A stretch of 64,000 nt of DNA from a virus (lineage: Duplodnaviria; Heunggongvirae; Uroviricota; Caudoviricetes): IMG/VR virus record IMGVR_UViG_2671180747_000017. One strand, given 5' to 3'. The position numbers and the translations under genes were made by a program. The notes beneath the pieces are model-generated. The model saw only the letters and a program-made list of their open reading frames with translations, ran no database searches and was not told the origin of the DNA. Of this stretch, positions 1,643-46,166 are shown one piece after another (the first letter of the stretch is position 1; every line of letters begins with the position of its first letter).

Positions 1643-1675
1643 TTCACGATATTCCATTAATACCATTTCCTGATG

Positions 1676-1700
1676 CCCGGCCATTGTGCCGGGTTTTTTT
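1676..1700 (+). terminator. Rho-independent terminator-like hairpin (CCCGGC-loop-GCCGGG then T7)
   Basis: Read directly: 6-bp GC stem, 6-nt loop, 7 consecutive T; lies between the 421-aa gene stop and the giant gene start. Confidence 0.6.
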
Positions 1701-1711
1701 ATGGAGTCTGT

Positions 1712-4700: not shown

Positions 4701-7700
4701 TGCTGAACGGAACGGTCAGCGCGAAACGCCTCGCAGAATGGATGGAAGGCAGAATGCCCTCCCGTTACGCGGACACCTGGCAACTGTTACGCACTCTGCC
4801 ACCCTCACAGATGGACAAGGCTTCTGCTTATCGGGTGGTATCGGGTGTGTATCAGGCGGCAGGAGGGAAGCGTTACGATCCGCCACAGAAACTTTATTCA
4901 CTGCGCAATAAGGACAATAAGGGGAGTAACCTCTTTTTCTCGGAAAGCAGGGATGAATTACTGGCAAAGGCGAAAGTCTGGTTTGCAGAGCAGGAGGAAA
5001 AATCACAGGCGAAAGGTGATGAAAAAACAGCACCGTCTCCGGATGACAAAATCCGCTTTGACGTTTACCGGAATACCCGCAGTGGCGATATTTTTATCGC
5101 TTACGGTAAAAACAAAATGCGGGTGAGAGGTGGCTTTAAGTCAGCCAGTGATGCGCGTAAGTACATTGATTTACATCGTGATGAGCTTGTTCGTCATGTG
5201 AAGGAGATGCGGGAGATTTCGCGTGAGGAGCAGCGCAACGCCACCAACCGCGACCGTACCGGACCAGAACGCCGCAAGGGGGATGTTTCACCGGAGCAGT
5301 TCAGTGATGCGTTTGGTTTTCGTGGTGTGCAGTTTGGTAATTATGTGGAAAGTCCGCGTCGTCAGGCTGATTTGAACCGGGCTTATGACTCGCTGCATGA
5401 CCTGGCTGACGTGCTGAATGTACCGACAAAAGCGCTTTCTCTGAACGGTCGTCTTGGGCTTGCTTTTGGTGCCCGTGGTAAGGGTAAGGCGGCGGCACAC
5501 TATGAGTCAGGTGAGGTGGCAATCAACCTGACAAAAGGTAACGGACCGGGTGCGCTGGCGCACGAATGGTTCCATTCTCTGGATAATTATTTTGGTCGTT
5601 ATGACGTTTCCAGTGACGGGAAAATTACGTCAGGTGGCGACTTTATGACGGAAGCACAGCGTGTCAGGCGCATATTTAAAGACGGCAGGTATGTTGATGC
5701 TGAATATCCGGTACGTCAGGAGGTTTACGACGCTTTTAAAGGTGTGATTCAGGCCATTAAAAACAGTGACATGCCGCGTCGTTCAGCGCTTCTTGATGAG
5801 GTGCGCTCAAAACCGTACTGGTCAACGGATGTTGAAATGGCGGCACGTGCCTTTGAGCGTTATGTTCAGGATAAGGCGCGTATGGCTGGCGTGGAGAATG
5901 ATTATCTGGTCAATATCCGTAAGGCACCTGAGCACAACACAGATAACACCTACGCTTATCCGACGAATGCGGAACTGGATGGCGGTATTCGTGAGGCATT
6001 CGATCACCTGTTCCGCACCCTGAAAACCCGTGAGACGGACAAGGGCGTTGCGTTTTATTCCCGTAAGGGCATGACCCGCACACCTGAAGGTAATCTCATT
6101 TCGGATGTTAACCGTAGTGCGGAAGCCAAAGGCAGCCCGGTCCCGCAGGTTGAAGCGGTTGCCCGTGGCGTGATGAGCGGCATTAAGGACAGTGACCTGA
6201 CGGTCCGTGTGGTGAAGTCACAGAAAGAGGCTGAAGCGCTGGCGGGTGAATCGTTCGACGGTTACGGCAGGGTGCACGCATTCTATCGTCCGGATAAACG
6301 AGAAATTGTCCTGGTGGCGGATAACATCCCTGACGGGCAGACCGTACGCGAGAAGTTGCGTCACGAGATTATCCACCATGCCATGGAGCATGTTGTCACG
6401 CCAGCGGAATATCAGACGATTATCAAAACCGTGCTGAAAACCCGCGACAGTGATAACGCCACCATCCGTGAAGCCTGGCGTAAGGTTGATGCGTCCTATG
6501 GTAAGGAATCACCGGAAGTACAGGCGGGTGAATTTCTGGCACATATGGCGGAGAAACAGCCGAATAAATTCGTGGCGGCATGGGAGCGTGTTGTTGCCCT
6601 GGTCAAAGGGGTACTGCGTCGTACGGGGTTACTGAAGCCGACGGAACTGAACGATATCAGACTTGTTCGCGAGACCATCCGTACGTTAGGCCAGCGTGTG
6701 CGGGAAGGTTACACGCCGCGTGAGGATGGCGTGGGCGCATCGTCTCAGTACTCCCGTAGTGGTAAGCCTGATCCGTTCAAAGTGCCGGAAGGTGAGGGTG
6801 AACGTTATCGCGATGACCTTGCCAGAATGATGAAATCTCTGCGTACCACAGATTTAACGGTAAACATCGGGCGTACGCCGCCGGTATTGCGTCACCTTGG
6901 TGCACCGGATTTGCCGCTGGTTATTTCCCGCGATACTGTGCGGAAGGCCACCAATGGTGTGAAACATGTGGTGCCGATGGATGTTATCGAGAGACTACCG
7001 GAACTGATGCACGATCCGGATGCAATTTACCGCTCAGCGACAGAAAGAAATGCGGTTGTGATGCTGCTTGATGCCGTGGATAAAAATGGTGATCCGGTAG
7101 TGTCTGCGGTGCATATGAAGGCAACCCAAAAACTTCTGGAAGTTAACCGTATTGCTTCTGTTTACGGAACGGAAAACGGGAAAAAACTGAAGAGTATGGA
7201 AACGGCTGGCTTAACATTATACAGGAGAGAAAAACTAAACCCTGATGGTTCTCTGTACAGAGGGCTCCAATTGCCCAAAGATGAGCACTCCCGTCAGGGT
7301 TCTGCGGATAAAATACTCTATCCTGAAGATATTCGCAAGGGGCCGTATTACTCCCGTACCAGCAGTCTGACACCGGAAGAGACAATTGCATCGCGTTTTG
7401 TGCGCCAGATGCAGGATAAATTCCAGGTGCTGAAAGCTGTTCAGGAGAATATCCGTAAAACTGGTGGAAAAATAGACGACAGTAACAACGCTTATATGGC
7501 GGAAGAACTCTTCCACGGGAAGGCGGAAAACGACCTGAACGTGATGAAGGAGCGCTACGTTCAGCCACTGGCTAAATTACTGGCGGACTACAAAATTGCG
7601 CAGGCCGATCTGGATGAGTACCTCTACGCCCGTCACGCGCCGGAACGTAACGCGCATATCGCGAAAATCAACCCGAAAATGCCGGACGGCGGTTCGGGGA

Positions 7701-10093
7701 TGACCAACGCGGAGGCGGCGGAAATCATGCAGCGTGTACGTAACAGCGGCAAACAGGCACAGTATGACCGTCTGGCAGGGATTGTTGACGATATGCTGGC
7801 CCGTCGCCGTGAGCTTATCCGTGAGGCAGGACTGGAAGAGAGCGGCGTGGTGGATGCCTGGCAGAAAGCCTACCGTTACTACGTTCCCCTGAAAGGGCAG
7901 GATGTTGACGGTGTGGTGTCACTGCCACGTACAGGCAAGGGATTCACCATCGGCGGGCGTGAAAGTAAGCAGGCCATGGGGCGCGCATCCCGCGCACAGT
8001 CTCCTTCCACTCAGGCGATACAGGATTTGAGCGAATCACTGATCCGCAATCGCAAAAATGAAGTGGGTAACGCCTTCCTGAAACTGGTACAGGATAATCC
8101 CGACAAGGATTACTGGCAGGTATTCACCGATGACAGACCGGATACCATGCGGACGATTGCAGAGCGCAAGGACAAGGAAACTGGTGAAACCATTCGCGAA
8201 GTTGTCGAACGCCCTGTACCGATGGCAATGATGGCAGACCGGTACTTCACCACCAAAAAGAACGGCAAAACGTACTACATCAAACTCCATGATCCGCGCC
8301 TGATGCGTGCGATGAAGAATATGGGACCGGAAACCAGTAACGCCGTAATCCGCACGCTGGGGAAAGTTAACCGCTTCCTGGCAACGGTGAACACGTCGTA
8401 TAACCCGGAATTCCTGGTCAGTAACTTCATCCGTGACGTACAGACGGCGGTGATGAACCTGAAGGCGGAGCAGGGAAGGAGCGACGGCAAACTGAAAGGG
8501 CTGGATAACTTATCCGCACTGGCTGTGGTGAAAGACAGTCGGTCTGCCATGTCTGCCGTATACGCCAGTCTGCGTGGTAAAACCCTCACGGGCAACGGTG
8601 CGCAGTGGCAGAAGGTGTGGAAAGAGTTTGTTGAGGACGGAGGTAAAACCGGCTGGTTTAACATGGGTGACCTTGAAGGCCAGCAGAAGGAAATGGATCG
8701 CCTTGTATCGCTGGCGAAGGGAGGATGGAAAGGCCAGAGTATCGGTGCATGGAATTCGTTCCTTAACCTTGTCGAGGATGCCAACGGGGCGGTTGAAAAC
8801 GCTCTGCGTCTTTCTGCCTATAAACACGCCCGTGATGCCGGTTTGTCACGCCAGCAGGCGGCGTCTCTTGCCAAAAACATGACGGTGAACTTTAACCGTC
8901 GTGGTGAGCAGGGGGCGCTGATGAACTCGCTGTACATGTTCGCCAACGCCAGTATTCAGGGAACGGCAAATCTGGTGAGAACGCTCGGACATCTTAATGG
9001 TGAGGGACCTTTACTGGAGCGCCTTCGCTGGAAGAATCTGAATGTTCCGCAGAAAATCGCGCTTGCCGCTGTGGGAGCGGGTTATCTGCTTGGCTCGCTT
9101 AACCGCAGCGTGGCGGGTGAGGATGATGACGGGGTTAACTGGTATGACAAAGTACCGTCTCATGTGAAAGAGCGTAACCTCGTCATTATGAAATCGGTGT
9201 TCGGGGGCAAGGCCGGAGAGTACTGGAGTATTCCTCTGCCTTACGGGTACAACGTTTTCTTCCTGCTTGGTCACACAGCCGAAGGGGTGGCAGCGGGCGA
9301 CCTGACCGCTTCACGTGCTGCCGGTAATGTTGTTGGTGGTGTGCTTGGGGCATTCAGTCCTGTGGGCAGTGAAACGTCGGAAACACTGTCCGGGGCATTG
9401 CTGAAAAATGCAGCGCCGACCATTCTGCGTCCGTTTGCGAACCTTGCCATGAATGAAAACTTCATGGGGGCGCAGATTTACCAGGAGAACATGCCGTTTG
9501 GTACACCAAAACCTGACAGCCAGCTGGGAAGACGTTCAACGCCAGAAGCGTACAAGGCGTTTGCATCCTGGCTGAATGCGTTCTCAGGTGGCAGCCAGTA
9601 CCGTCCCGGCGCGGTGGATATCACACCGGAATCGCTGAAATTCTGGATTGACTATATCTCCGGAGGGACAGGGCGCTTCATTTCCAAAACCACGGATGCG
9701 GCGGTGAAATCGCTGAATGGTATTGATATACCGGAACAGCAGGTGCCCTTCCTGGGGAAAATTTCGGGGGAGGTGATGCCGTATGCAGACCAGCAGAAGA
9801 TGTACGACCGGATGACAGAGATTGCGCAGTATCACGCAGAGCTGAAGAGTCTGACCGGTGCAGAAAGAACGGCGTTCATTGACGAGAACAACGGAAAATT
9901 GTCGATGAACGGGCTTATGCAGGATACCCGGAAGAGACTGAAGGATTTGCGTAAACAGCGTGATGCCATTTATGCCGACAGTTCTCTCAGTCTGGCGCAG
10001 CAGGCGGCGATAGTGAAATCGGTAGAGCGGGATATGAAGGTTGCCGTGGATCGCTTTAACCGCGAGTACAACAAAAAAGTGGGAGTGGATTAA
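1712..10093 (+). CDS. Giant phage protein (about 2793 aa) with HExxH zincin-like metallopeptidase motif; polyvalent/virion-associated type protein (function inferred)
   Basis: Single uninterrupted 8.4-kb ORF; ATG at 1712 chosen because the track start 1673 lies inside the upstream terminator hairpin; motif GALAHEWFHSLDNYFG; long Ala/Glu/Gln low-complexity stretches. Confidence 0.8.
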   Translation: MAYSEEQRPEAQLGNQNRNSLNIQQPGETDSYEAFFSDPNRWKDNSTSFSLGDVLPTMGKGFAQSVRGTGEMARGLGDAMIQSPVKTGARILNEFSRMGLPGVATVQDIFAGGSRGADEVIDTLPDGKNAVTDTVGKGLKATGKAVSDGAEATDEWLTGKMSPGAVRALNTPMTEGYDDSAVWVAKGVNLIGALVPDMVAGGVAKKVGDVTLRKMLTAGLEKKYIAAGMQPERATALAAEAVDKKMPDLFQAGLITHSTASAQGQSAMAAADAVLNADYSELAQSPKFQQTFLSIDADPQHAQLTDRQKMDLAKERVADEVRAQLATDPELLAVNAMAAKLGDAQLFNLVTRGTAKTVKSGIVRNATEQGAINAAQGGYSRYQENTALRETAGMDVSPWEGVADATIEGAAFGAAMGAPSGAVAGYRGRRQAAEEAAMRDAETVQQDDAAPQPESVDPVAQHRESMQGMNREQLLEQYADADMATEGDASAAHRREAASQLLNELDEQAKRQAVMNELKAKPRSELLEEYRRLSQKEERTETEEQQFQAIREVIRPQQEVTPEAQSQPENAEDGNGSIYPTVRFRDPNEVRIEINGNGASRPAERIEKVRPDNRYFTDEKSAMGSDVFRNAAATGLKPSVVKKGETQYAVEMDNPAFSEDVATETINTLADGERIADADPMEQPAFMRDPRFRGFTGDDTEVQARLARGNVPTAEELVRSQMAEGDAGPTAQELTERPRLPAPGDIHPGQGYPLPGEVARTPDENQAGRGGRFTTTGEVKGQSFQKGQALAPENAAGRQGETLEGEMVRRGLPSPDAQNATAPVREGLPAPDITHNVRMPQPDQLPRTVRNSLPELAQQAEVRRQAGGNRDIPQPETIAPESETTVATDREATVRGGEVRGKKIEDFGEEIKGAAKHRYAQLAETLGKTLEDRDYVTQPLSKLFPKPDYAKLASEGADADTLAMIALYRSDIPVKTKHNTAGWGESVKKVRHSVSEMLNGTVSAKRLAEWMEGRMPSRYADTWQLLRTLPPSQMDKASAYRVVSGVYQAAGGKRYDPPQKLYSLRNKDNKGSNLFFSESRDELLAKAKVWFAEQEEKSQAKGDEKTAPSPDDKIRFDVYRNTRSGDIFIAYGKNKMRVRGGFKSASDARKYIDLHRDELVRHVKEMREISREEQRNATNRDRTGPERRKGDVSPEQFSDAFGFRGVQFGNYVESPRRQADLNRAYDSLHDLADVLNVPTKALSLNGRLGLAFGARGKGKAAAHYESGEVAINLTKGNGPGALAHEWFHSLDNYFGRYDVSSDGKITSGGDFMTEAQRVRRIFKDGRYVDAEYPVRQEVYDAFKGVIQAIKNSDMPRRSALLDEVRSKPYWSTDVEMAARAFERYVQDKARMAGVENDYLVNIRKAPEHNTDNTYAYPTNAELDGGIREAFDHLFRTLKTRETDKGVAFYSRKGMTRTPEGNLISDVNRSAEAKGSPVPQVEAVARGVMSGIKDSDLTVRVVKSQKEAEALAGESFDGYGRVHAFYRPDKREIVLVADNIPDGQTVREKLRHEIIHHAMEHVVTPAEYQTIIKTVLKTRDSDNATIREAWRKVDASYGKESPEVQAGEFLAHMAEKQPNKFVAAWERVVALVKGVLRRTGLLKPTELNDIRLVRETIRTLGQRVREGYTPREDGVGASSQYSRSGKPDPFKVPEGEGERYRDDLARMMKSLRTTDLTVNIGRTPPVLRHLGAPDLPLVISRDTVRKATNGVKHVVPMDVIERLPELMHDPDAIYRSATERNAVVMLLDAVDKNGDPVVSAVHMKATQKLLEVNRIASVYGTENGKKLKSMETAGLTLYRREKLNPDGSLYRGLQLPKDEHSRQGSADKILYPEDIRKGPYYSRTSSLTPEETIASRFVRQMQDKFQVLKAVQENIRKTGGKIDDSNNAYMAEELFHGKAENDLNVMKERYVQPLAKLLADYKIAQADLDEYLYARHAPERNAHIAKINPKMPDGGSGMTNAEAAEIMQRVRNSGKQAQYDRLAGIVDDMLARRRELIREAGLEESGVVDAWQKAYRYYVPLKGQDVDGVVSLPRTGKGFTIGGRESKQAMGRASRAQSPSTQAIQDLSESLIRNRKNEVGNAFLKLVQDNPDKDYWQVFTDDRPDTMRTIAERKDKETGETIREVVERPVPMAMMADRYFTTKKNGKTYYIKLHDPRLMRAMKNMGPETSNAVIRTLGKVNRFLATVNTSYNPEFLVSNFIRDVQTAVMNLKAEQGRSDGKLKGLDNLSALAVVKDSRSAMSAVYASLRGKTLTGNGAQWQKVWKEFVEDGGKTGWFNMGDLEGQQKEMDRLVSLAKGGWKGQSIGAWNSFLNLVEDANGAVENALRLSAYKHARDAGLSRQQAASLAKNMTVNFNRRGEQGALMNSLYMFANASIQGTANLVRTLGHLNGEGPLLERLRWKNLNVPQKIALAAVGAGYLLGSLNRSVAGEDDDGVNWYDKVPSHVKERNLVIMKSVFGGKAGEYWSIPLPYGYNVFFLLGHTAEGVAAGDLTASRAAGNVVGGVLGAFSPVGSETSETLSGALLKNAAPTILRPFANLAMNENFMGAQIYQENMPFGTPKPDSQLGRRSTPEAYKAFASWLNAFSGGSQYRPGAVDITPESLKFWIDYISGGTGRFISKTTDAAVKSLNGIDIPEQQVPFLGKISGEVMPYADQQKMYDRMTEIAQYHAELKSLTGAERTAFIDENNGKLSMNGLMQDTRKRLKDLRKQRDAIYADSSLSLAQQAAIVKSVERDMKVAVDRFNREYNKKVGVD

Positions 10094-14045: not shown

Positions 14046-14294
14046 GATGACCTCCTTTGGCTTTTTTCGAGAAATGCCACCACAAAATGTGGTGCCGGGA
14101 GGCTCGAAACGGCCCAAAAGATACCGCGGACTTATTCCCCTTGCGGGTGTTGTATTCGTCGCCCTCCCGACATTGATCGGGGATGTGACCGCACACTGTG
14201 CTATCACTGAATAACAGGCATAAAAAATCCAACACTGACGGGGTTGGTTTAATCCGCTTTTGGGAGGTTTTCGAGGCCTCGGCGCGGAGTATAG

Positions 14295-14582: not shown

Positions 14583-14909
14583 AATTATGACTCCTGACGT
14601 TTTAGTATTGACTGCCACCTTAGTGGGGTGGCGGGCTTCAACTACCGCGTCAGACGGCGGAGCGTATTTCCCGAAAGGGTATTGTATTAGGCTCTCTCGA
14701 CCCGCCATTGATATGGCGATACCTGTAAACAGGCATAAAAAAGCCGCAAAGCTATCGGGTGCGGTTGACCGCTGACGTTGTAGTGCAGTCAGTATGCGAT
14801 AGCTCTGGCAGATTTGTCAAATCGTGCAGTAACATCCTTTTCTTCCTTGCCATTTCTCAATGATGACAAAGGGTGGATTCGGATTGGTATTGGGACAAAA
14901 GTGAGACAC

Positions 14910-17595: not shown

Positions 17596-18622
17596 TTATA
17601 TTTTTTCGATCTCGACCAGATTAGTGTGCTGCGGGTTTCCCTTCGCCAGTGGTGAAGGGCGCAGAGTGGTTAGCGTATTCACACAGCCGCCATGGTCGAT
17701 TTTATCGCCAGACATATTGGCCTCGTGCCAGGCTCCCTGGCCCATAGCGCTAACTCCAGGGAGAATACGTGGTGTTACTTTGGCTGGTAGCCGAACTTCG
17801 CCACGATGGTTAAACACCCGCACCATATCGCCGTTGGCAATCCCACGTTTCTGCGCATCTATAGGGTTGATCCACACCTCCTGACGGCAGGCAGCCTTCA
17901 GGAGATCAATATTGCCGTAGGTCGAGTGAGTACGGGATTTGTAATGGAAACCAAACAGTTGCAGTGGGAAGGTTCTACGTTCAGGGGAGTCCCAGCCTTC
18001 AAAGGTAGAGGCATAAACTGGCAGTGGGCTTATCACTTCATCTTTTTCCAGTTCCCAGGTACGGGCAATTTCCGCCAGCTTGCTGGAATAAATTTCAATC
18101 TTACCGGAAGGTGTTTTAAGTGGATTTGCCTCGGGGTCGTCACGAAATGCTTTGTAGGCGACAAAATGACCATTGGGATCTTTACGCTTATAGATACCCA
18201 TTTTTTTCAGTTCGTCGTAAGACGGTAACGCCGGATCTTTGGCAAGCATTTTGGCGTACAGATGTTGTAACCATTGTTCCTGCGTGCGACCTTCAGTGAA
18301 CTTTTGATAGACGTCAGGTCCAAGACGTTTCGCGACTTCACTCAGGATCCAGTAAATCGGTTTGCGTTCGAATTTTTCGCTGGTGACAGGCTGGAGGAAA
18401 ATGAGATATCCCATGTTACCGGCGTAGTCGTTAGGAATAATATCTTCCTGCTCAACGGTCATCAGGTCTGGCAGCAGAATGTCGGCATATTTTGCCGATG
18501 AGGTCATAAAGTTTTCGATGACCACAATCATTTCGCATTTCGATTCGTCCTGCAGAATTTCATGCGTTTTGTTGATGTCAGAATGCTGATTAACGAGGGT
18601 ATTTCCCGCGTAGTTCCAGATG
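17596..18622 (-). pseudogene. ynfE: ynfE C-terminal fragment (distal part of the disrupted gene)
   Basis: Paralogous to ynfF C-terminal half; the ynfE-derived reading frame begins at the junction (...SIWNYAGNTL) and the track ORF N-terminus is island-derived. Confidence 0.85.
18612..18622. repeat. attL core direct repeat AGTTCCAGATG
   Basis: Identical 11-mer at both ynfE breakpoints. Confidence 0.8.
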
Positions 18623-18687
18623 GACTCCATTGTCAGACGGATGGATGGACTTGAAGTAGTTGACTCAATGCTACTTAAGGTCCTGAT

Positions 18688-20271
18688 ATGACTGACATTA
18701 ACCATGATAATACTGTATATCCATCCAGTTCTTTCTCTGGGTCTCCCTATCTGTATCAGCAAGTCTGCACCTCAAGTCCTGACACAAGGCTGACACAAAT
18801 CAATCTACTCAGCGTAGCTAAGCCTCAGTTAGTCCGTAGAGCCAATGGTCGATATACTATCCGCTTCAGACTCAAGGGACAGACCATCCCGTTTCTTTCA
18901 GTATCGACCCGAAGCACAGACAGGAGAGTAGCCACAATGCGTCAGAGAGAGCTTGCAGCCACAGCTAAGTCCTTCATGTTGGATAGGCCTGATGTCTCGC
19001 TACAGGAGCTTACGGACCACCTCCGGTCTATGGCTGAGCAGTTCCTGACAGACGCCAGTGATGACTACTGGAATGGACTTGAGGTCGCTACTCTGGTGGA
19101 CGAGAAGTCCAACCTGAAGGAGCTAGCCGCTACGCAAGCCTTGAGTCTGGACCAGCAGAAGGGCATAAGGTTAGCGCTTGAAGTCCTGACCGCAGCACAG
19201 CAGAGGGTAGACACTGGTGATGCCTCTGGTCTGATTAAGCTGATTGATGATAATAACCATACTGATTACTCAACTATAGGCGACTCTACGTCAATTCTGA
19301 AGAATGAGCAGGGGGATAGACCAGCAGTTTTCACACAGGAGCGTCAGCCATCTGTGGTTTTTTCAAGCCTAGTGTCCTCGCTGCTGGCTGAGAAGGTCCA
19401 GACCCTGAAGTCCTCCAGCTACAAGGACCTGTCGTCCTCACTGAATACCGTCTCTCGGTTCTTACCTGAAGACATGGACCTGATGTCCCGCTCTGAGTGG
19501 CTGGCTGTCAGGGACTCCATGCTGGCTGCTGAGGTGAGACCATCGACAATCAACAAGCTGCTGACTAAGGCGAAGATGTGTCTTGATTATGGCCTGATGA
19601 ATGGGCAACTTGAGGGCCGCAACCCTATTGAACGGATGAAGCTGACCAAGGATATCGACTCCAAGCGCAGAGCGTTCACAGACGAGGAGCTGGAGAGACT
19701 TCTGGTCCGTGTTGAGTCTGAGTATCAGTTCACACGACACACGGCTCACACGACCTCTGAGGCCCGTAGATGGGCGTCTCTGGTGTCTGTGGTCACTGGC
19801 GCGAGGTCTGCTGAAGTCTGCCACCTGACTAAACGTGACATTGTCACCTTAGACAACGGTTTAACCTGCATCGACATCAATGAAGATGGGGACGGTAAGT
19901 CTGTGAAGAACAAACATTCAGTCCGACTTGTACCGCTGACCGATGGGGCCTGTGGGTTCGACCTGAAGTCCTTCCTTGAATGGGTAGACACGCAGCCTGA
20001 CGACGGCGGTCCTCTCTTCGGGATGACTCCGAGCGCCTACTCTAGCTGGTTTAACTCTAGGGTCCTGACTGAGGCACTGGGAGACGCTGAGAACGTTTCT
20101 CTCCATAGTCTGAGGCATTGGCTGGCGACCCGAATGAAAGAGCGTGGAGTCAATCTGGTGGACGCTCAGGGCATCTTAGGCCATAGCAGTCAGTCAATTA
20201 CGTATGACCTGTACGGGAAAGGACACGCTGTTGGTAGGCTGGCTGAGGTGCTGAAGACAGCTTTACTTTAA
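18688..20271 (+). CDS. int: Tyrosine recombinase / integrase of the island
   Basis: C-terminal HSLRHWLATR and LGHSSQSITYDLYGKGH (H-x-x-R and catalytic Tyr); N-terminal GRYTIRFRLKG arm-binding-like segment; true start uncertain because arm-type repeats lie at 18780-18798. Confidence 0.85.
   Translation: MTDINHDNTVYPSSSFSGSPYLYQQVCTSSPDTRLTQINLLSVAKPQLVRRANGRYTIRFRLKGQTIPFLSVSTRSTDRRVATMRQRELAATAKSFMLDRPDVSLQELTDHLRSMAEQFLTDASDDYWNGLEVATLVDEKSNLKELAATQALSLDQQKGIRLALEVLTAAQQRVDTGDASGLIKLIDDNNHTDYSTIGDSTSILKNEQGDRPAVFTQERQPSVVFSSLVSSLLAEKVQTLKSSSYKDLSSSLNTVSRFLPEDMDLMSRSEWLAVRDSMLAAEVRPSTINKLLTKAKMCLDYGLMNGQLEGRNPIERMKLTKDIDSKRRAFTDEELERLLVRVESEYQFTRHTAHTTSEARRWASLVSVVTGARSAEVCHLTKRDIVTLDNGLTCIDINEDGDGKSVKNKHSVRLVPLTDGACGFDLKSFLEWVDTQPDDGGPLFGMTPSAYSSWFNSRVLTEALGDAENVSLHSLRHWLATRMKERGVNLVDAQGILGHSSQSITYDLYGKGHAVGRLAEVLKTALL
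18780..18798. repeat. Two direct TGACACAA arm-type repeats, 11-bp spacing, left end of island
   Basis: TGACACAAGGCTGACACAA read directly; same motif triplicated at the right end. Confidence 0.7.
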
Positions 20272-20348
20272 GTAGGAAGACCCAAGGTGGAGACCATATA
20301 CGGCTTGATGGTTGAGACCTTGGGTCACTGAAGTCTGACTGAAGTTAG

Positions 20349-20376
20349 GGAGGGTGATAATAATCATAATCCCTCC
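20349..20376 (+). terminator. Hairpin downstream of integrase (GGAGGG, 16-nt loop, CCCTCC), no clear U-tract
   Basis: Read directly about 80 bp after the int stop. Confidence 0.25.
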
Positions 20377-20483
20377 TGACTATAGGCCCACTGGTTCGCC
20401 TTCGGCTGTCAGACTCTAAGTCTGTATGTGGTCTTATTTAAACTGGTTCCCTAACTCCAGTACTCCAAATTCCTATGGTCTCC

Positions 20484-20690
20484 TCTTGACATTCCTGTTT
20501 AACTGTGAGTCGCCTCTGGTCTCTCTTTATATATACTTCCTTAATTCCTGAGGCGTCTTTAGTCCTTGACATCCAGTCCAGCCTGTGAGTCACATCCGGT
20601 CCTCCCTCTTTATATATACTTCCTTAATTCCTAGGGTCGCCTTAATCCTTGACATCCAGTCCAGCCTGTGAGTCACATCCTGTCGCGCTA
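20484..20690. repeat. Three tandem direct repeats, period about 80-83 bp, each with TTGACAT...CTGTGAGTC; the first two also carry CTCTTTATATATACTTCCTTAATTCCT
   Basis: TTGACA at 20486, 20566, 20649; CTGTGAGTC at 20503, 20583, 20666; 27-mer at 20523 and 20606. Confidence 0.75.
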
Positions 20691-20713
20691 CTGTATGCAT
20701 CACCAGTGATGGA

Positions 20714-20736
20714 CTTGATTATCACTATAGGGGAAC
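20714..20736 (+). promoter_or_regulatory. T7-group phage RNA polymerase promoter-like site, copy 1 (predicted +1 G at 20730)
   Basis: TCACTATAGGG matches T7 consensus positions -8 to +3 exactly; upstream specificity region (ATTA) differs from T7/T3/K11/SP6; 35 bp upstream of an ORF with AGGAG RBS. Confidence 0.6.
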
Positions 20737-20764
20737 CAACTAATTCAACTACAGGAGATACTCT

Positions 20765-21133
20765 ATGGCACGACCAATCGCAACTCACGACAACACGTTC
20801 ACCAAAGCCTACTTGCAGCAGCACTGCGGGGACCTGCTGTCATTCGATGGTCAGGGCGACCTGAGTGGTTGGCTGGATGATGTCCTTACTGGTGCTGGTC
20901 GCCTGAACGAATCAATGGCAAGCAATACCAAGCCTGTCAGCCCATACTTGATTCTGACCCAACTACTAACGCACGACACATTAACTGTAAGCGCTGTACA
21001 GGAGTCCCTGAGCCGTAAGCGTGTTGCCTTGGGTGAACCTATGGTTTCAACTCGCTACGCTCGCTACGTCTATGCTACCGTCGTCAGCGCCAGTAAATCC
21101 GTCCAGTACCACGCCAGTAAAGCTGGTTCATGA
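20765..21133 (+). CDS. 122-aa protein, first gene downstream of phage-type promoter 1, unknown function
   Basis: ORF track; ACAGGAGATACTCT-ATG gives an AGGAG RBS at good spacing. Confidence 0.65.
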   Translation: MARPIATHDNTFTKAYLQQHCGDLLSFDGQGDLSGWLDDVLTGAGRLNESMASNTKPVSPYLILTQLLTHDTLTVSAVQESLSRKRVALGEPMVSTRYARYVYATVVSASKSVQYHASKAGS

Positions 21134-21142
21134 TTACGGACC

Positions 21143-21165
21143 CTAAACTATCACTATAGGGAGAC
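21143..21165 (+). promoter_or_regulatory. T7-group phage RNA polymerase promoter-like site, copy 2 (predicted +1 G at 21159)
   Basis: TCACTATAGGGAGA matches T7 consensus positions -8 to +6 (14/14); shares TATCACTATAGGG with copy 1; same strand. Confidence 0.65.
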
Positions 21166-21422
21166 CAGCCTCCGCCTCTGAGTCTGATGCGTCAGAACAT
21201 GCGAGCATCTGGTCAACCGACATTAAGTATCTCTCCTAAGTAATCAAGGCATGTGACCGCCTCTGTCAGACCTCGTGTATCGACCTCCAGCTCGTTAGCG
21301 TTCTCGTGTCTTCATTATGATTTGGGTCTATCACCGCTCACCATCTGGAAGTCCTTACAGCTCGTCCTGACATGCGGTCTCACCTTTATATGGCTGGAAG
21401 AGACCTCCTCTGTCAGACGCTA

Positions 21423-21470
21423 TCTAACCAACCCAGAAAACGGGTTTGTTAAAAAGATTAACATGGGTCT
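21423..21470. repeat. Direct repeat copy 1, about 47 bp (TCTAACCAACCCAGAAAACGGGTTTGTTAAAAAGATTAACATGGGTCT)
   Basis: Near-identical second copy at 21619-21665; contains short hairpin AACCC-AGAAAAC-GGGTT. Confidence 0.7.
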
Positions 21471-21490
21471 CCACCTTCATGAGGACCGCT

Positions 21491-21504
21491 CCGGAAATTT
21501 CCGG
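21491..21504. repeat. 14-bp perfect palindrome CCGGAAATTTCCGG between the two 47-bp repeats
   Basis: Read directly. Confidence 0.7.
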
Positions 21505-21618
21505 ACCGTGAACGGGTGGCTCTATCACAGGTCGCGAAAATGGAAACCTGCTTAACGTCCCCAAAACTGAGCAGTCACCATTCTTAACGGGTCCAAATTT
21601 GGGCGCGTTGGCGAGAAG

Positions 21619-21665
21619 TCTAACCAACCCAGAAAACGGGTTTGTTAAAAAAGTTAACATGGTCT
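21619..21665. repeat. Direct repeat copy 2, about 47 bp
   Basis: About 45 of 48 positions identical to copy 1; 196 bp spacing. Confidence 0.7.
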
Positions 21666-21793
21666 TCACACGACCTCATTACCTCAAGTCTTTCTGTATG
21701 TCTCCTGTTGCCTGTGAGTCTCCCTATCGTTGGGGGCTTGAGTAGGCTTTCAGGGTGTGACTTCAGGAGGCATAACAAAAGGAGTACAACGAT

Positions 21794-22552
21794 ATGTCAA
21801 CTCAACCCTTAATGAAGCATGAAGTAGTTCTTCCTGTCATCGTTGACGGCTATCACTGGGCCTGTAATCAGGACCGTATGTGGAACCTGAACGAGCTACA
21901 TAAAGAGCTTGAGCTTCCATCTGCTAAGGAGCCGGGTCAGTGGCGTTCTAGCGTCAGGACGCTTCTTGACCAAGATGCAAATCTGCATGTTGCTCATGGT
22001 GGTTCGACTCCGGGGACATGGGCTACTGAAGAGGCGGCTATTGCCTATGCGATGTGGGTCTCACCTGATTTCTACCTTAAGGTCATCCGTGCTTTCATCG
22101 CTTTACGTAACGACAAAGTGTCGGAAGCTAAGGCGCTGGCGCAGGACTCCAAGGAACTTAAGGGTCTCAAGCCTATAGCCCGTAACTGGCTGGAAAAGCT
22201 GGATAACCCGAAGCAGGGCCACACCCTGACAGAGTGTCTTAAGAATCTCGACTTCAGGTTAGGTACAAAGCTGGTATCAGCCAAGGCTCTTAATGCCGTA
22301 TTGAAGTCAGGGCGTATAGCTAATCCCTTCTATAGTCGCAAGCTGGACGGTCGAGGACAGCCTGTATTTGACATCTCGTCAGGTGGCTGGATGACCAGCT
22401 TCAATCCTAAGGGTCTGGAGAACGGCTATTACCGTCTTCAGGATAACCACTATAACGGTCAGGAGGGGCTTAAGGTCCTCACCAAGGGTTACGAGTGGCT
22501 TAAGTCCAACAAGGTCGAGCTGGTTCGTCTGTGCGCTAAGGGAGGACTCTAA
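21794..22552 (+). CDS. KilA-N domain protein (DNA-binding), 252 aa
   Basis: AAGGAG RBS; N-terminal ...LHVAHGGSTPGTWATEEAAIAYAMWVSPDFYLKV resembles KilA-N/APSES-type domain. Confidence 0.7.
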   Translation: MSTQPLMKHEVVLPVIVDGYHWACNQDRMWNLNELHKELELPSAKEPGQWRSSVRTLLDQDANLHVAHGGSTPGTWATEEAAIAYAMWVSPDFYLKVIRAFIALRNDKVSEAKALAQDSKELKGLKPIARNWLEKLDNPKQGHTLTECLKNLDFRLGTKLVSAKALNAVLKSGRIANPFYSRKLDGRGQPVFDISSGGWMTSFNPKGLENGYYRLQDNHYNGQEGLKVLTKGYEWLKSNKVELVRLCAKGGL

Positions 22553-22817: not shown

Positions 22818-23309
22818 ATGATGTTCAACAACAACAACTGGAAGCTGTCAGTCACCGACATCAACCTTTATGAAAACACTGTGAGTCTGGACGGTCAGTC
22901 CTATCCGTTGTCGCTCGCTATCAAGACCCTGATTCCGGGCTACCTGTCAGGACTGCCGTCTACCAGCCGTGAGTCTATGGAGTTACTGGAAGCTCTGGCT
23001 GAAGCTGGTGTAGCTATTGGCAACTTCTTCAGTAATGACCTGATGACCGCCTATGGTCGCCGCCAGCAGAACAAGCGAGCTGAGGCTGAGCGTATCGCTA
23101 AAGAGCAGCGCATTCAGGCCGAGCGCATGCGTGAAGAGAACATGACTGATGCAGAGTGGCAGAAAGAGCTACAGCGCCGCGAACAGGTCAAAGCTGAACG
23201 CCGGACCTATGGTGAGAACCTCCGCAGTGCTACCCATTCCGCTGGTCGCTCCCGTGCCGCTATTGTCGCTGACCTTGAGTCAGGCGGTAACTGGCTGGAC
23301 AGCTTATAA
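22818..23309 (+). CDS. 163-aa protein with basic coiled-coil C-terminal half, unknown function
   Basis: ORF track; GAGGAG RBS; Arg/Glu/Gln-rich heptad-like segment AEAERIAKEQRIQAERMREE. Confidence 0.6.
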   Translation: MMFNNNNWKLSVTDINLYENTVSLDGQSYPLSLAIKTLIPGYLSGLPSTSRESMELLEALAEAGVAIGNFFSNDLMTAYGRRQQNKRAEAERIAKEQRIQAERMREENMTDAEWQKELQRREQVKAERRTYGENLRSATHSAGRSRAAIVADLESGGNWLDSL

Positions 23310-23393
23310 GACACACAGTCCCTGACCCGATGTTAGGGACTCCTCAGTTTTGAGGACTCACAGTATTTAAACTAATTTAGGAGATTGATTATT

Positions 23394-24380
23394 ATGACGA
23401 TTAAAGACGCTTTCCAGTTTGGCATTGAGCCAGTACGCATCACCGATACCGACAACATTCAGGTCAATGAAGGTCTGCCGACTAACGCTGACCCGCAGGT
23501 CTACGCCCTCCAGTTAGCTAAGACGGTTAAGGCTATGCTGAACGGTGTACTTAAGGACGCTCAAGAGAACATCCCGTTCCCTGTAGAAGTCCTGCCGACC
23601 CGTAACAGCTTACCGACCCCAATCATTGCCCACACTCTGACTGACCGCTCTGTGGTCGTTCCTGTCCGTGGTGGCAAGCGACCTGAAGTCGTGACCGTTC
23701 CGTCTGGACAAGAAATCGTGGTCGAACCAATCGAGCAGGCTATTCTCATCTCTGAGCAGACCAAGCTCTGGGACGCCAAGTCATCCACCGGATTCACTCA
23801 GGGCACACTTCAGCAGGACGCTATGAACATCTGTGAGAATGTGGTCCGTACCATCAACGCTCGCATGGTCGACGTTCTGGAATCCTCTAAGCTGCTGAAG
23901 ACCGTAGAGCTTCCTGTCCTGACTGGTAGCCTGACCGCTAAGGCAGACGCTATCATGGACGCTCTGTATGAGAACACAGAGTCTTCTTTCGGTTCTGAGG
24001 TGTCTGACTACGGTATTATCGCTCATGAGAGCCAACTGAAAGCACTGTCCCGTCTGGCTGCTAAGCAAGGCTTCTCCGGTGAAGACGCTATCGTCGATAT
24101 GCTGGGAACAGACATCGCCTACTACAACGGTGAAGACAAGGGTGTATTCATGCTGGCTAAACGCTTCACGGCTCTGAGCTTCGGTTGCTTCCGTCACGAT
24201 GGCGAGAATATTACGGTCGTCCTTTCACGTGATGGCGACTCTCAGTCCCACGACTTGGAAATCCTCGGTAAAGTGTTCGTTGTCGCTGAAGCTGCTACGA
24301 CCATCAAGATGGGCACTGGCTCAGCTACTGCCGTCCTGCCTGTAGTCAAACGCCTGAAGTTCACCAAGACCGAAGCGTAA
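23394..24380 (+). CDS. 328-aa protein, unknown function (largest island cargo gene)
   Basis: ATG 23394 with TAGGAG RBS (track start 23385 is TTG); no motif I can assign. Confidence 0.65.
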   Translation: MTIKDAFQFGIEPVRITDTDNIQVNEGLPTNADPQVYALQLAKTVKAMLNGVLKDAQENIPFPVEVLPTRNSLPTPIIAHTLTDRSVVVPVRGGKRPEVVTVPSGQEIVVEPIEQAILISEQTKLWDAKSSTGFTQGTLQQDAMNICENVVRTINARMVDVLESSKLLKTVELPVLTGSLTAKADAIMDALYENTESSFGSEVSDYGIIAHESQLKALSRLAAKQGFSGEDAIVDMLGTDIAYYNGEDKGVFMLAKRFTALSFGCFRHDGENITVVLSRDGDSQSHDLEILGKVFVVAEAATTIKMGTGSATAVLPVVKRLKFTKTEA

Positions 24381-24385
24381 GACCA

Positions 24386-24625
24386 ATGGGTAAGAGCATT
24401 AGTAAAGGCTTCAGGTCCATCGCCAAGGGCCTGACAGGTGGTGGTGGGACTCAAGGTGGGGCTTCGGTCCCGCCTCCTGTAGCTCCTCCTGTAGCTCCTC
24501 CAGATGACGCTCAGCAAGCTGTAGTCGATACCCAAGGTCAGGAGACCGAGGGAGGTAAGACCATGAGCAGAGGTAAGTCTGGACTGAATATCAGCAGGAC
24601 TTCAGGTGGTGGCCTGTCACTGTGA
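24386..24625 (+). CDS. 79-aa Gly/Pro-rich basic protein
   Basis: ORF track; GGGGTQGGASVPPPVAPPVAPP low-complexity; follows 328-aa gene by 5 nt. Confidence 0.45.
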   Translation: MGKSISKGFRSIAKGLTGGGGTQGGASVPPPVAPPVAPPDDAQQAVVDTQGQETEGGKTMSRGKSGLNISRTSGGGLSL

Positions 24626-24863
24626 TTAAGACATCTATACAGCCTGTGGAGGGTGGACGATATCAAGCAACAATCTGGATGACACGCAGAGTCTATAAGC
24701 GGCTATGCTGGTCACTGGCTGAAGCTGAACAGTGGGTGAGACGTAAAGTGCCTACCGTTCAATCGTTCCAATCATCATGATAACTATGGTCTGGACCAAT
24801 GGTCTGGACCTTTGTTTTGTACTAGTTATCTAGTGCAGTAGTACAATAGACGAAGGAGGCTTT

Positions 24864-25019
24864 ATGTCTATGACTTCCGCAGACCTAAGGTCCCTCCTGA
24901 CTCTGGTCTATAAACTCGTGTTCCTCTCTGTGGGTCTCTATATGGTCCTCTCCGGTCGACTCGGTGTGAATGTATTCGACACTCTGTCTAAGGCTGTGGG
25001 TGGGCTTCTGGGGGCTTAG
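24864..25019 (+). CDS. 51-aa hydrophobic membrane peptide
   Basis: Strongest RBS in the island (GAAGGAGG, 6 nt before ATG); one predicted TM helix LLTLVYKLVFLSVGLYMVLSG; read by eye, not in ORF track. Confidence 0.5.
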   Translation: MSMTSADLRSLLTLVYKLVFLSVGLYMVLSGRLGVNVFDTLSKAVGGLLGA

Positions 25020-25169
25020 GTTTGGACTCACAGTGGGACCGATGGTTTCTGACAGAAAAATGTGAATGACCATCTAATACATTAAGCCAGCAGACTTCCC
25101 CCATAGCCCGCCTCAAGTCCAGACCGAGGCCACCGGGGGGCTGACCAGCCGTCTAGACATCCCGTCTAA

Positions 25170-25200
25170 TGACACAAGGCTGACACAAAGCCTGACACAA
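25170..25200. repeat. Three direct TGACACAA arm-type repeats (11-12 bp spacing), right end of island
   Basis: TGACACAAGGCTGACACAAAGCCTGACACAA read directly. Confidence 0.7.
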
Positions 25201-25257
25201 AGTCCTTGACTCAATGCAGGACCTCAGGCCTACTAAGGGTCCGCTTCAAGTCCTTGA

Positions 25258-25268
25258 AGTTCCAGATG
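25258..25268. repeat. attR core direct repeat AGTTCCAGATG
   Basis: Identical to 18612-18622. Confidence 0.8.
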
Positions 25269-26668
25269 AACTTAATGGGCACATCCAGTTTATCTTTGCC
25301 GCGGACGCCGTCGCGGATTGCCGTCATTTGCGGACCATGATCGATAGCATCTGTCCAGCTGAAGCAGGAGATTGACATTTTGACCGGATTATCCAGCACC
25401 GGCAGGCGTTCTATGGTAATGGTATAGGTCGATTCACGCGCGCCACTATTTCCGCCGCTGATGCCGACATTGCCCGTCAAAATAGGTAACATAGCAATAG
25501 CGCGTGCAGTCAGTTCGCCGTTTGCCTGGCGTTGCGGCCCCCAGCCCTGGCAGATATAAGCGGGTTTTGCTGTGCCAATTTCACGCGCCAGTTTGATGAT
25601 ACGGTCTACCGGGATACCGGTAATTTGCGAAGCCCACTGCGGCGTTTTCGCTGTGTTATCATCACCTTCACCAAGAATATAGGCTTTATAGTGACTATTT
25701 TTGGGTGCATCTGCGGGTAAGGTTTTTTCGTCATAGCCGACGCAGTATTTATCGAGAAAAGGTTGATCAACGAGATTTTCGTTAATCAATACCCAGGCAA
25801 TACCCGCAACCAGCGCGGCATCGGTGCCCGGGCGAATAGGGAGCCATTCATCTTCACGACCAGCAGCCGTATCGGTATATCGCGGATCGATAGCAATCAT
25901 TTTGGCGTTCGATTTCTCGCGCGCTTTTTCAAGAAGATAAGTGATGCCACCGCCGCTCATGCGGGTTTCTGCCGGGTTGTTACCAAACATCACGACCAGC
26001 TTGCTGTTTTCAATATCCGTGGTGCTGTTGCCATCATTACTGCCGTAGGTGTAGGGCATGGCACAGGAAATTTGCGCGGTGCTGTAGGAGCCATACTGAT
26101 TGAGTGAACCGCCGTAGCAGTTCATCAGGCGTTTGACCGCCGAGGCTGATGGCGAAGAGCGGGTCATATTGCCGCCAACGATCCCCGAAGAGTACTGAAT
26201 ATATACAGCCTCATTGCCATATTGTTCGACGGTTTTCTTCAGGCTACTGGCGATAGTATCCAGGGCTTCATCCCAGCTAATCCGTTCGAATTTGCCTTCG
26301 CCGCGTTTGCCCACGCGTTTCATTGGGTAATTCAAGCGATCGGGATGATTAATACGCCGACGGATGGATCGACCACGCAAACAGGCGCGTACTTGATGAT
26401 TGCCATACTCGTCGCTGCCGGTGTTGTCAGTTTCCACCCAGGTGACTTCATTATCTTTAACATGTAGACGAAGTGCACAGCGGCTACCACAGTTGACGGA
26501 ACAGGCACCCCAGATCACTTTTTCGCTGGCCTGTTGTACCGCTGCCGCTGCACTGCGCAGGGTGAACGGTAAAGAAAAACCGCCTGCAGCCAGCGCCAGA
26601 GAACCTATCGCGGTTGATTTAACGAGTGTTCTGCGGCTGATGCCCACCATTCGGTCATTTTTGGACAT
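25258..26668 (-). pseudogene. ynfE: ynfE N-terminal fragment (promoter-proximal part of the disrupted gene)
   Basis: Tat signal GISRRTLVKSTAIG, CSVNCGSRC motif; colinear with ynfF to ...DVPIKFIWN, then island-derived residues and stop. Confidence 0.85.
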
Positions 26669-36609: not shown

Positions 36610-37113
36610 TATCGCGTCCTCAACAATGAATTTTGTGATGCAGTGCCTGGTGCCTCCAGGTGACGTTAACCAGTTAACAATTAACGTCGGATACAGAGAA
36701 TCCACCCATAACACTGTTTTTGGTTTTAACTGTTCCGCGTGCGCTTAGCCGCATTCACCGCATCACAAAATTCACTTTAAAAACGGCGGCAGAGCAGTCA
36801 CGGAGTAAAACTGATACCGCCAAACGTCACCAGAAAATTGATAACAGAGGGCGTTGCAGCGGGGTTGTCACTTAAGCGTATGGTCAACCTGACAACTCGG
36901 TGTCCTCAACGGGGAAGGAATAACCCCGCCATACTTACCGCCGCGCCATTTTGCGGGTTGCCACAACCGGAAGCGCACGGTCGAATTAAATTTAACGACA
37001 CCGTACAGCGAGACGAACTTCGCCGTGCGCTTTCGTGTTGTGTGCCTGCTTTTAACCACGTCAGGCGAGGTGGTATCCTTAAAATCACCACAGTTTTAAG
37101 GATTCATTAAGCA

Positions 37114-41710: not shown

Positions 41711-42208
41711 TCTTGTTGAAATTAGAGGAAATCTTGCAGCCATGATATGGCTTAAAATAACGTTTGATTATTTTACCTGCTGTTTGTCCCTGGTTTAAAG
41801 TCGGTTGTCTGATTTGATTACGCGCAACTGACGCTTACGTATTGAAGTAACGAGCACGAAGACACATATTTATCAGTGCCTGTATACGTCAAGAGCAGGA
41901 GATTTATGTGCTGGTTCTCAAATGCACGCTGGCTATTGTGGCTGTAATGGCAATTTATTGTCTTGTTATTGTTCTTATGGATCACCTTTCTGATTGATTT
42001 CATATTGGCGAGGTAACGGTAGTTAAGTAGAATGGCTGCGGGTGCTTGAGGCTATCTGCCTCGGGCATGAACACCAACGGCAGATAGAGAAAAGCCCCAG
42101 TTAACATTACGCGTCCTGCAAGACGCTTAACATTAATCTGAGGCCAATTTCATGCTAGACACATGTAGGTTAGCCTCTTACGTGCCGAAAGGCAAGGAGA
42201 AGCAGGCT

Positions 42209-45885: not shown

Positions 45886-46166
45886 AATTCATCGCTCGTC
45901 TGTATACGATAACGAAGAAGGCTGATGCCTGAGTAGAGATACGGACAGAGTAGTGAATATTGGATTTCTTTAATAAAAATTAAGGAGGTCCAATACATGA
46001 AACAATGGCCAGCATATTTGGCAAAATCTTAATCAGGAAAAGTATGCTAACCATTGTGGTGAAGTGCAGGTTTGCTGCATGAATAGTTTTACAGCAGAAG
46101 CTAACTGCTGGCATGGCAAAACAAAGTGCGTAAGTGGATGACTCCCACAAAAAGCACCACAATCTC

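Follow-up and report, generated by a model that had tools for sequence, protein, structure and literature searches.

We analysed a 64,000-nucleotide (nt) stretch of DNA (the window) from the IMG/VR virus record IMGVR_UViG_2671180747_000017, and in particular the segment at 21170-21793, which lies on the plus strand between a cargo open reading frame (ORF) of 122 aa and a gene for a KilA-N protein (gene 3). The first-pass annotation had pointed to two direct repeats and a palindrome in this segment, and had proposed that it is a transcription-activated replication origin or a structured noncoding RNA. We consider it probable that the segment is instead a patchwork untranslated leader, about 635 nt long, of an operon with a phage promoter, and that it combines a scar of gene debris with two conserved RNA structures, which we call hairpin A2 (21255-21379) and Block C (21656-21793). 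The promoter is identical to promoters of known phages, the segment is non-coding, the repeats and the palindrome originate from gene fragments, and the base pairs of A2 and Block C covary. The segment belongs to a mobile island with relatives in many enterobacteria. What makes the segment interesting is the pair of conserved structures in the leader, together with the family of islands that carries them. All leader features and promoters described below are on the plus strand.

Promoter P2 (ACTATCACTATAGGGAGA, 21147-21164) stands directly before the segment. It is an exact match to the promoter pattern of the Kayfunavirus (K1F-like) type, and its 25-nt core is 100% identical to sites of which Kayfunavirus (K1F-like) and related phages have six to eight in each genome. 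The earlier claim that the segment lies directly downstream of a genuine T7-group promoter is thus upheld, and the island is therefore wired to the RNA polymerase (RNAP) of a T7-like phage. A weaker promoter, P1 (20718-20735), has three mismatches. P1 and P2 are the sole pattern matches in the window, two being seen against 0.02 expected. Since both promoters are of the Kayfunavirus type, the leader RNA is expected only when a matching T7-like phage supplies the RNAP. The gap between the last phage promoter and gene 3 is long across the whole island family, the distance from the promoter to Block C ranging from about 100 to about 1000 nt. Neither BLASTN nor a sensitive local BLAST detected phage-like sequence in the leader beyond the promoter. 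In particular, when the island, its leader Block A and Block C were compared by BLASTN with 50,697 phage records, the promoter was the only meaningful match, and the sensitive local search of the leader against the genome of Kayfunavirus Bas105 (PQ850601.1) returned the promoters only.

It had been noted previously that the segment contains no convincing ORF. This was confirmed: no ORF keeps its frame or its start among the homologous leaders, and no conserved protein-coding frame was seen in the homologues. The longest ORF (21253-21555, 100 aa, GTG start) has no match in Pfam or PHROGs, and none of the homologous leaders keeps it whole, only pieces of 38-47 aa being left. No ribosome-binding site (RBS) precedes any candidate start in the segment. 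Indels among the homologous leaders are 1, 1, 4, 13 and 25-27 nt long. An upstream ORF in Block C and the ATGG starts at the ends of the repeats were considered and rejected, as neither their frames nor their starts are conserved. A conserved ATGGTC was likewise dismissed as a start site; it is the 5' arm of the Block C helix H0.

The leader is a mosaic: Block A (to about 21400) and Block C are common to many islands, and the middle part is variable. As a whole, the leader folds better than shuffled sequences (z = -3.9). Near the start of the P2 transcript there is a small hairpin, the module-1 5' hairpin (CGC..UCUGA-UGCG-UCAGA..GCG, 21173-21203). RNAalifold on 18 leaders gives two compensated pairs in it (UA/CG and CG/UA) between the window-type and the L023-type leaders; the window fragment taken alone folds no better than shuffles (z = 0.0). 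Farther downstream is a decayed promoter-like module (CCTAAGTAATCAAGGCATGTGA, 21235-21256), which MAFFT aligns to an intact-looking variant promoter, CTTAACTATCACTGGTAGGAAGA, in the related loci L055 and L067, where this promoter stands directly ahead of A2-type sequence. The leader thus resembles several "promoter plus 5' hairpin" modules set one behind the other, some being relics, since a decayed promoter precedes A2 and a hairpin follows P2. The sequence after A2 (..GGCTGGAAGAGACCTCCTCTGTCAGAC.., 21380-21422) is probably a third, degenerate promoter-leader module. A repeat (GACCGCCTCTGTCAGAC / GACCTCCTCTGTCAGAC) occurs at 21255 and 21402, and this resembles the promoter plus the CCGCCTCTGTCAGACC start of L055 and L067.

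Hairpin A2 is about 120 nt long and includes 39 pairs. Its minimum free energy is -44.5 kcal/mol (z = -5.1), and none of 200 shuffled sequences was as stable. In an alignment of 20 distinct sequences 96.5% of the cells are paired, compared with 28-35% when the partners are slid. Six pairs are changed on both sides, and the covariation score is 0.112 against at most 0.045 for slid partners and 0.058 +/- 0.006 for shuffled alignments. In six sequences 13 nt are deleted from both arms together.

Block C is a structured element of the 5' untranslated region, about 135 nt long, located at the RBS of gene 3 and conserved in at least eight enterobacterial genera. Single-sequence folds and RNAalifold agree on its main fold: a long-range helix H1 (21695-21707/21764-21777) encloses helix H3 (21711-21721/21744-21754) and an inner stem (21722-21726/21731-21735). 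H1 has an extension (21689-21693/21779-21783) that reaches into the Shine-Dalgarno (SD) sequence, and a mini-hairpin, H0 (21661-21664/21672-21675), lies upstream. A helix CTCAAG/CTTGAG was at one time taken for the main stem; it was replaced by the nested H1/H3 model and kept as a possible pseudoknot (CUCAAG/CUUGAG, 21683-21688/21737-21742), which is supported by only one clearly covarying pair and by a variant in L034 that was aligned by eye.

The sequence-based alignment of Block C comprises 29 distinct sequences from islands of many genera, metagenome loci included. In this alignment 92% of the cells are paired, compared with 40-57% when the partners are slid. Ten pairs are changed on both sides (at most six with slid partners; none of 500 shuffles reaches ten), and the covariation score is 0.167 against at most 0.054 for slid partners. 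Thus the structure and covariation analysis across homologous islands, which had been suggested as a check on the first reading, gave positive results for A2 and Block C alike. The plus strand of Block C folds to -43.4 kcal/mol and the minus strand to -34.2 kcal/mol, and G-U pairs are frequent at covarying positions; this fits an RNA transcribed in the sense of the promoters. Block C always adjoins the RBS of gene 3, whichever gene follows: it ends 10-15 nt before the SD sequence of KilA-N, Rha-type and unrelated gene-3 cassettes. A covariance model of Block C (R1) finds one copy per island, including the divergent L044, which was not used for training (65 bits), and no copy in a Kayfunavirus genome. 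Rfam has no match for 20200-21900 at E <= 1 and none at gathering score in the segment.

The proposal of a structured RNA is therefore supported in part, for A2 and Block C and not for the repeats and the palindrome, which lie outside both structures, save for a few bases of the second repeat copy that overlap H0. The repeats and the palindrome themselves exist as described. The former, reported as 47-bp direct repeats about 95% identical, are found at 21423-21466 and 21619-21662 as 44 nt without gaps, 196 nt from start to start; they extend to about 47 nt if one 1-nt indel is allowed (ATGGGTC vs ATGGTC). The perfect 14-bp palindrome CCGGAAATTTCCGG is at 21491-21504 and is the single match in the window with one mismatch allowed, the chance expectation being 0.02.

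The origin of both becomes clear from comparison with other islands of the same family: judging from sequence identity, they are KilA-N-type coding fragments that belong to intact genes there. Copy 1 of the repeat unit (21423-21469) is a fragment of a KilA-N-like gene and encodes LTNPENGFVKKINMG. It is 100% identical over 47-48 nt to L022 (5110-5157) and L030 (12725-12771), where the 47-nt unit is in frame in an intact KilA-N-like coding sequence (CDS) of 166 aa, encoding ..RNLTNPENGFVKKINMGHLGTSW... The unit is present in 38 of 5,426 complete E. coli genomes, never in more than one place per genome, and in 20 of these 38, with 100% identity, it is part of an annotated CDS. A second piece of the L022-type gene, CTTCATGAGGACC (21475-21487, 13 nt, codons RFMRT), matches L022 at 5083-5095 on direct reading and is out of order and out of frame. 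The palindrome is held by a fragment of another KilA-N allele (21484-21515, encoding DRSGNFRTVNG), 31 of whose 32 nt are identical to L034 (Pectobacterium) 5292-5323, within an intact KilA-N gene at 5142-5858; the same piece, 96.9% identical, is within annotated KilA-N CDSs of 45 E. coli genomes (e.g., L078 2339-3079). Next comes an interior fragment of a Rha-type gene 3 (21583-21622), which is 95% identical to L021 4867-4907, inside an annotated Rha-family CDS (4681-5439), and has weaker matches inside gene 3 of L035 and L043. Copy 2 of the repeat unit (21619-21665) has two mismatches to copy 1, and its 3' end overlaps H0. The pieces are not in gene order, and their reading frames differ.

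Neither the repeats nor the palindrome are conserved cis-elements; they sit in the non-conserved part of the leader. Islands of the L001 type have copy 2 alone, and those of the L021 type have copy 1 alone and a degraded palindrome. Among all loci fetched, both units and an intact palindrome occur together only in the window and in L008, its identical IMG/VR copy. Most simply read, the interval 21423-21665 is a scar, left where the highly variable gene-3 cassette was exchanged repeatedly or recombined unequally. What had been regarded as motifs of an origin or a noncoding RNA are thus ordinary scars of cassette exchange, and these repeats and this palindrome most likely have no function of their own.

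According to the mechanism that we propose, the helper RNAP would, upon infection, transcribe from P1 and P2 through the leader into an operon formed by gene 3 (KilA-N), ORF55, ORF163 and an HK97-fold capsid gene. The leader would begin with stacked modules (P2 with its small hairpin; the decayed promoter with A2; the third, degenerate module), continue with the scar at 21423-21665, made of pieces of two KilA-N types and the Rha type left by cassette replacement or unequal recombination, and close with Block C, a multi-helix and possibly pseudoknotted RNA ending at the gene-3 RBS. The action of A2 and Block C would be on the RNA, in its processing, stability or translation control. Both appear to be long irregular helices of the kind that host RNase III cuts in T7 transcripts; they could alternatively serve as 5' or 3' stabilisers, i.e., as end-protecting hairpins. 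Block C, fixed beside the SD sequence, would tune translation initiation of whichever gene-3 cassette follows.

Several points weigh against this reading. The covariation comes from few independent lineages, namely four or five sequence types for A2 and about six for Block C. The thermodynamics of Block C alone are unexceptional (z = -1.6). The SD sequence does not pair consistently with the outer stem of Block C: column pair 46/144 is unpaired in 18 of the 29 sequences. A simple SD-masking model is therefore weak, and we rejected SD sequestration by this stem. Transcription from P2, with the first G of GGGAGA at 21159 as its predicted +1, is deduced from identity to phage promoters. Cleavage of A2 or Block C by RNase III is only an analogy with T7, though the predicted helices (39 pairs in A2; about 29 in H1, H3 and the inner stem of Block C) do have the length of such substrates, at least about 20 bp stacked and irregular. 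Finally, the debris pieces are sharply bounded and 97-100% identical to intact genes; this fits recent recombination and leaves room for some nucleotide-level role.

A replication origin of the T7 type is an improbable explanation of the segment. RNA from P1 or P2 would prime the phage DNA polymerase, and the phage primase would prime the displaced plus strand, so that the excised island is amplified during infection; the origin might be the leader or its promoter-proximal part alone. In T7 the primary origin has promoters phi1.1A/1.1B and, behind them, an AT-rich region containing a primase site; its unwinding region, about 60 bp and well above 70% AT, is immediately downstream of the promoter. 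The likeness is in phage-RNAP promoters, here P1 and P2, both directed into a non-coding stretch, and in primase-type sites on the displaced strand. The leader has six T7-type primase sites ((G/T)GGTC, GTGTC) on the plus strand and none on the minus strand in 624 nt. This asymmetry rests on six sites and was seen post hoc, and island-wide such sites number about 6.6 per kb on both strands. No AT-rich block, the one defining feature of a T7 origin open to a sequence test, corresponds to that of T7: the leader is 51% AT overall, and its maximum, 65% in 60 nt, is 474 nt downstream of P2, inside repeat copy 2, i.e., within a non-conserved gene fragment. The idea arose from the repeats and the palindrome, which are single or absent in relatives and coding elsewhere. 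The content and length of the leader vary greatly, L034 being almost without one, and beyond the promoter it has no similarity to any region of a Kayfunavirus genome. The proposed transcription-activated origin was therefore not supported. An iteron-type origin, with at least three regular repeats, a Rep gene and an AT-rich element, does not describe the segment either; there are two copies 196 bp apart, and neither Pfam nor PHROGs reveals a Rep-like gene in the island.

Still, a satellite-like island, as the HK97 capsid gene and concatemer-junction mimics described below suggest this one to be, must replicate, and T7 reportedly packages plasmids that carry a T7 origin together with a concatemer junction (Chung & Hinkle 1990, J Mol Biol 216:911, cited in PMC13172314). 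Any T7-type promoter might prime replication, so we keep an origin as a minor rival, for the promoter-proximal part and not for the repeats. A by-eye likeness of the leader to the concatemer junction (GCCTCTGAGTC..) was dropped: the leader scores 16 against the Kayfunavirus concatemer-junction region, and shuffles score 13.9 +/- 2.3.

It is also rather unlikely that the leader, or pieces processed from it, is a noncoding RNA acting in trans, made only in the presence of phage RNAP and serving as a decoy, sponge or antisense to helper or host functions. A long, untranslated predicted RNA with two covariation-supported structures and no Rfam family would suit such a role. Against this, Block C is always at the gene-3 RBS whichever gene follows, a placement typical of cis-acting elements, and a search of both strands revealed no complementarity to a Kayfunavirus genome.

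That the repeats and the palindrome are protein-binding sites (iterons or operators) for the downstream KilA-N protein or for a protein of the helper phage is very unlikely. KilA-N is a DNA-binding domain (PF04383), each unit contains small inverted repeats (AACCC..GGGTT, GTTAA..TTAAC), and a perfect palindrome is improbable by chance. However, intact genes of 20 and 45 genomes contain the same sequences as in-frame coding parts, relatives carry a single unit or lack it, and L021-type leaders have a degraded palindrome. Besides, there are just two copies, 196 bp apart, and the island has no Rep-like gene.

We give scarcely any credence to the idea that the debris is a store of silent donor cassettes, partial KilA-N copies used for pilin-type gene conversion of gene 3. 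Gene 3 is highly variable among islands, and copy 1 (LTNPENGFVKKINMG) and the palindrome piece (DRSGNFRTVNG) represent the same variable KilA-N segment, before a G..GTW motif. Yet the pieces are only 32-47 nt long with non-homologous flanks and no match to the resident KilA-N allele, the arrangement is limited to this island variant, no recombination machinery or signal was identified, and simple cassette-exchange scars explain the same data. Equally hard to credit are hidden small genes (the 100-aa GTG ORF, ORFs of 31 and 28 aa starting at the ATGG that ends each repeat, or a 15-codon upstream ORF in Block C): ORFs do occur in the segment, and a short frame KSFC(M/L)xPVAC.SP(Y/F).WGL can be read in several Block C types, but every start codon and frame is lost across homologues, the indels are not multiples of three, the starts lack an SD sequence, Pfam and PHROGs have no matches, and the differences between Block C types are not biased to third codon positions and match base-pair covariation.

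The DNA surrounding the island in the window is E. coli chromosome. The island, about 6.6 kb long, interrupts ynfE, the halves of which are at 17596-18762 and 25211-26668, and all its genes are on the plus strand. It starts with an integrase gene (18688-20271, PF00589), followed by the 122-aa cargo ORF (20765-21133), the leader and gene 3 (21794-22552, PF04383, E = 1.3e-9), whose start signals are at 21781-21796 (SD sequence GGAG at 21781-21784, ATG at 21794). ORF55 lies between gene 3 and ORF163 (22818-23309), and then comes ORF331 (23385-24380), the capsid gene. Att-like direct repeats flank the island (18612-18635/25258-25281, 18654-18671/25200-25217 and 18780-18799/25170-25189). One of them, a 20-nt exact repeat near both ends (TGACACAAGGCTGACACAAA), may represent arm-type sites of the integrase.

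Some further features of the window were recorded. Between the integrase gene and P1 there is an 83-bp tandem duplication (20520-20684, 89% identical), in each copy of which a TTGACA box is accompanied by CTGTGAGTC motifs; the region yielded no call of a sigma-70 consensus promoter. After the capsid gene, small plus-strand ORFs were spotted by eye in the raw sequence at 24387-25000: one for a Gly/Pro-rich protein of about 80 aa (MGKSISKGFRS...), an AP2-like ORF (..GGRYQATIWMTRRVYKRL..) and one for a holin-like membrane protein (MSMTSADLRSLLTLVYKLVFLSVGLYMVLSG...). A very large plus-strand ORF (1673-10093, 2806 aa) lies upstream of the ynf region. Elsewhere in the window Rfam matches two sRNA-Xcc1, DicF, a sok antitoxin RNA and two cspA thermoregulators (14086-14171 and 14622-14706 on the minus strand; 36784-36835; 42040-42214; 45509-45932; 48410-48794), which suggests further mobile or prophage-derived DNA nearby.

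When one genome per species was scanned by means of the integrase, 19 related loci (L028-L046) were obtained, in Citrobacter, Kluyvera, Shigella, Leclercia, Proteus, Klebsiella, Pectobacterium, Shimwellia, Rouxiella, Buttiauxella, Enterobacter and Serratia; loci of the family from metagenomes are L047-L077. Most of the related islands have T7-group promoters, which differ in specificity; two kinds often stand in tandem, and paired different promoters are frequently 27 bp apart (e.g., at 10790 and 10817 in L038). The island of Klebsiella pneumoniae ATCC 13883 (L033) carries the exact T7 consensus TAATACGACTCACTATAGGGAGA. In L029, L032, L039 and L041 Block C is present and no promoter of the searched pattern was found. 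Small islands of E. coli, Shigella, Citrobacter, Klebsiella, Leclercia, Kluyvera, Proteus, Pectobacterium, Buttiauxella and others are thus wired to T7-like single-subunit RNAPs, and their leaders carry two covariation-supported structures that have no Rfam counterpart.

The product of ORF331 is hypothetical in all annotations. AlphaFold predicts for it an HK97-fold major capsid protein with a predicted local distance difference test (pLDDT) score of 82.9 on a 33-sequence alignment (42 with a shallow alignment). Foldseek gives 207 PDB matches at E <= 1e-3, with HK97-fold phage capsids and encapsulins throughout the top matches listed. Thus the island encodes its own capsid protein. No portal, terminase, primase/replicase or AlpA-type regulator was recognised in it with Pfam and PHROGs.

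The ends of the island mimic both boundaries of the terminal repeat of the putative helper. At the right end, 25024-25182 aligns to the Kayfunavirus right-end/terminal-repeat boundary with a score of 33 (shuffles 11.9 +/- 1.9). At the left end, 18743-18759 contains a 16-nt exact match to the other repeat boundary plus the pause site, CCCT|ATCTGTATCAG. This match, TCCCTATCTGTATCAG, lies where the 5' end of the integrase ORF is annotated, occurs once each in the window and the phage genome, and at the nucleotide level is limited to ynfE-type islands. The two mimics would be about 330 bp apart only after excision (across attP) or in concatemers. An invariant "YLY" of the integrases was set aside as evidence for a site like the concatemer junction, being a protein motif of the integrase family. 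As a separate observation, an imperfect hairpin upstream of P1, GGAGGGTGATAATAATCATAATCCCTCC (20349-20376), is identical in 27 of 28 nt to Bas105 (PQ850601.1) 3593-3620, near the right end of that phage, in the interval from its last phage promoter to the gene that precedes the genome end; the corresponding position in L023 and L024 is taken by another palindrome, GGATTGTGTTATCACAATTCC.

Because the island has a capsid gene and mimics of the concatemer junction, it is probably a satellite of T7-like phages, more exactly a capsid-encoding mini-satellite of a kind not described before. The features that bear on its status as a satellite are an integrase, att-like repeats, helper-type promoters, junction mimics and, as the only structural gene, that for the HK97 capsid. 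Contigs of about 6.4-7.8 kb with the capsid gene were considered as excised circles and rejected, the ones that were fetched (L026 and L027) being ordinary chromosomal fragments. Four metagenome contigs (L051, L056, L070 and L073) are 6.6-6.75 kb long and have the island boundaries (from about 18.55 to 25.3 kb) with no terminal overlap; they are therefore not evidence of excision, and their ends are probably assembly breaks at a polymorphic insertion. We found no description of such an island family in the literature searched, the coverage of which was incomplete. If experiments bear the satellite out, the T7 group, whose strictly virulent members are classic model phages, would have its first satellite system. 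It would also offer a clean way to study how a parasite detects its helper by means of the helper polymerase and how its 5' leader controls expression.

A broader reading is possible, though we regard it as doubtful: A2 and Block C may be a new cis-regulatory RNA family that works only on phage-polymerase transcripts, in undescribed capsid-encoding satellites, about 6.6 kb in size, of virulent T7-like phages across Enterobacterales. A2 and Block C might then form a switch in which kinetic folding or processing tells transcripts of a fast T7-type RNAP from host read-through and licenses translation of the satellite gene-3/capsid operon. The promoter-proximal leader could additionally be the transcription-primed origin of the satellite. 

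Comparison with known systems concerns the scar, the structures and the island. The debris resembles gene-remnant scars of mosaic mobile elements without any notable difference: the pieces are short, bounded and 97-100% identical to intact alleles elsewhere, and they stand out of order and frame where the rest of the interval is not conserved. For the repeats and the palindrome this is the ordinary reading. A2 and Block C resemble the RNase III hairpins and 5' stem-loops of the T7 group in being long irregular helices, with 25-30 bp stacked, in untranslated regions of phage-RNAP transcripts, and in their placement after promoters (A2 and the module-1 hairpin) or before an RBS (Block C). They differ in having no sequence or covariance-model match in a Kayfunavirus genome. 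In addition, Block C may include a pseudoknot, whereas classical T7 RNase III sites, to our knowledge, have none.

Phage satellites include the P4-like elements, PICI, capsid-forming PICI (cf-PICI), PLE and PICMI, as outlined in bioRxiv 10.1101/2022.09.14.508007 and PMC10803314. Measured against these outlines, the island differs in its size of just about 6.6 kb, in the lack of a recognised terminase, portal, primase/replicase or AlpA-type regulator, and in its putative helpers, which are T7-like Autographiviridae. Its induction apparently goes through helper-specific promoters for single-subunit RNAPs, often of two specificities in tandem, and this too sets it apart from the satellites as presented there. 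With the known satellites it shares a small integrative form, an integrase, expression wired to the helper phage and helper-like packaging signals carried by the island. It has an HK97-fold capsid gene of its own in common with cf-PICIs, and, like PICMIs, it is very small and apparently depends on a virulent helper.

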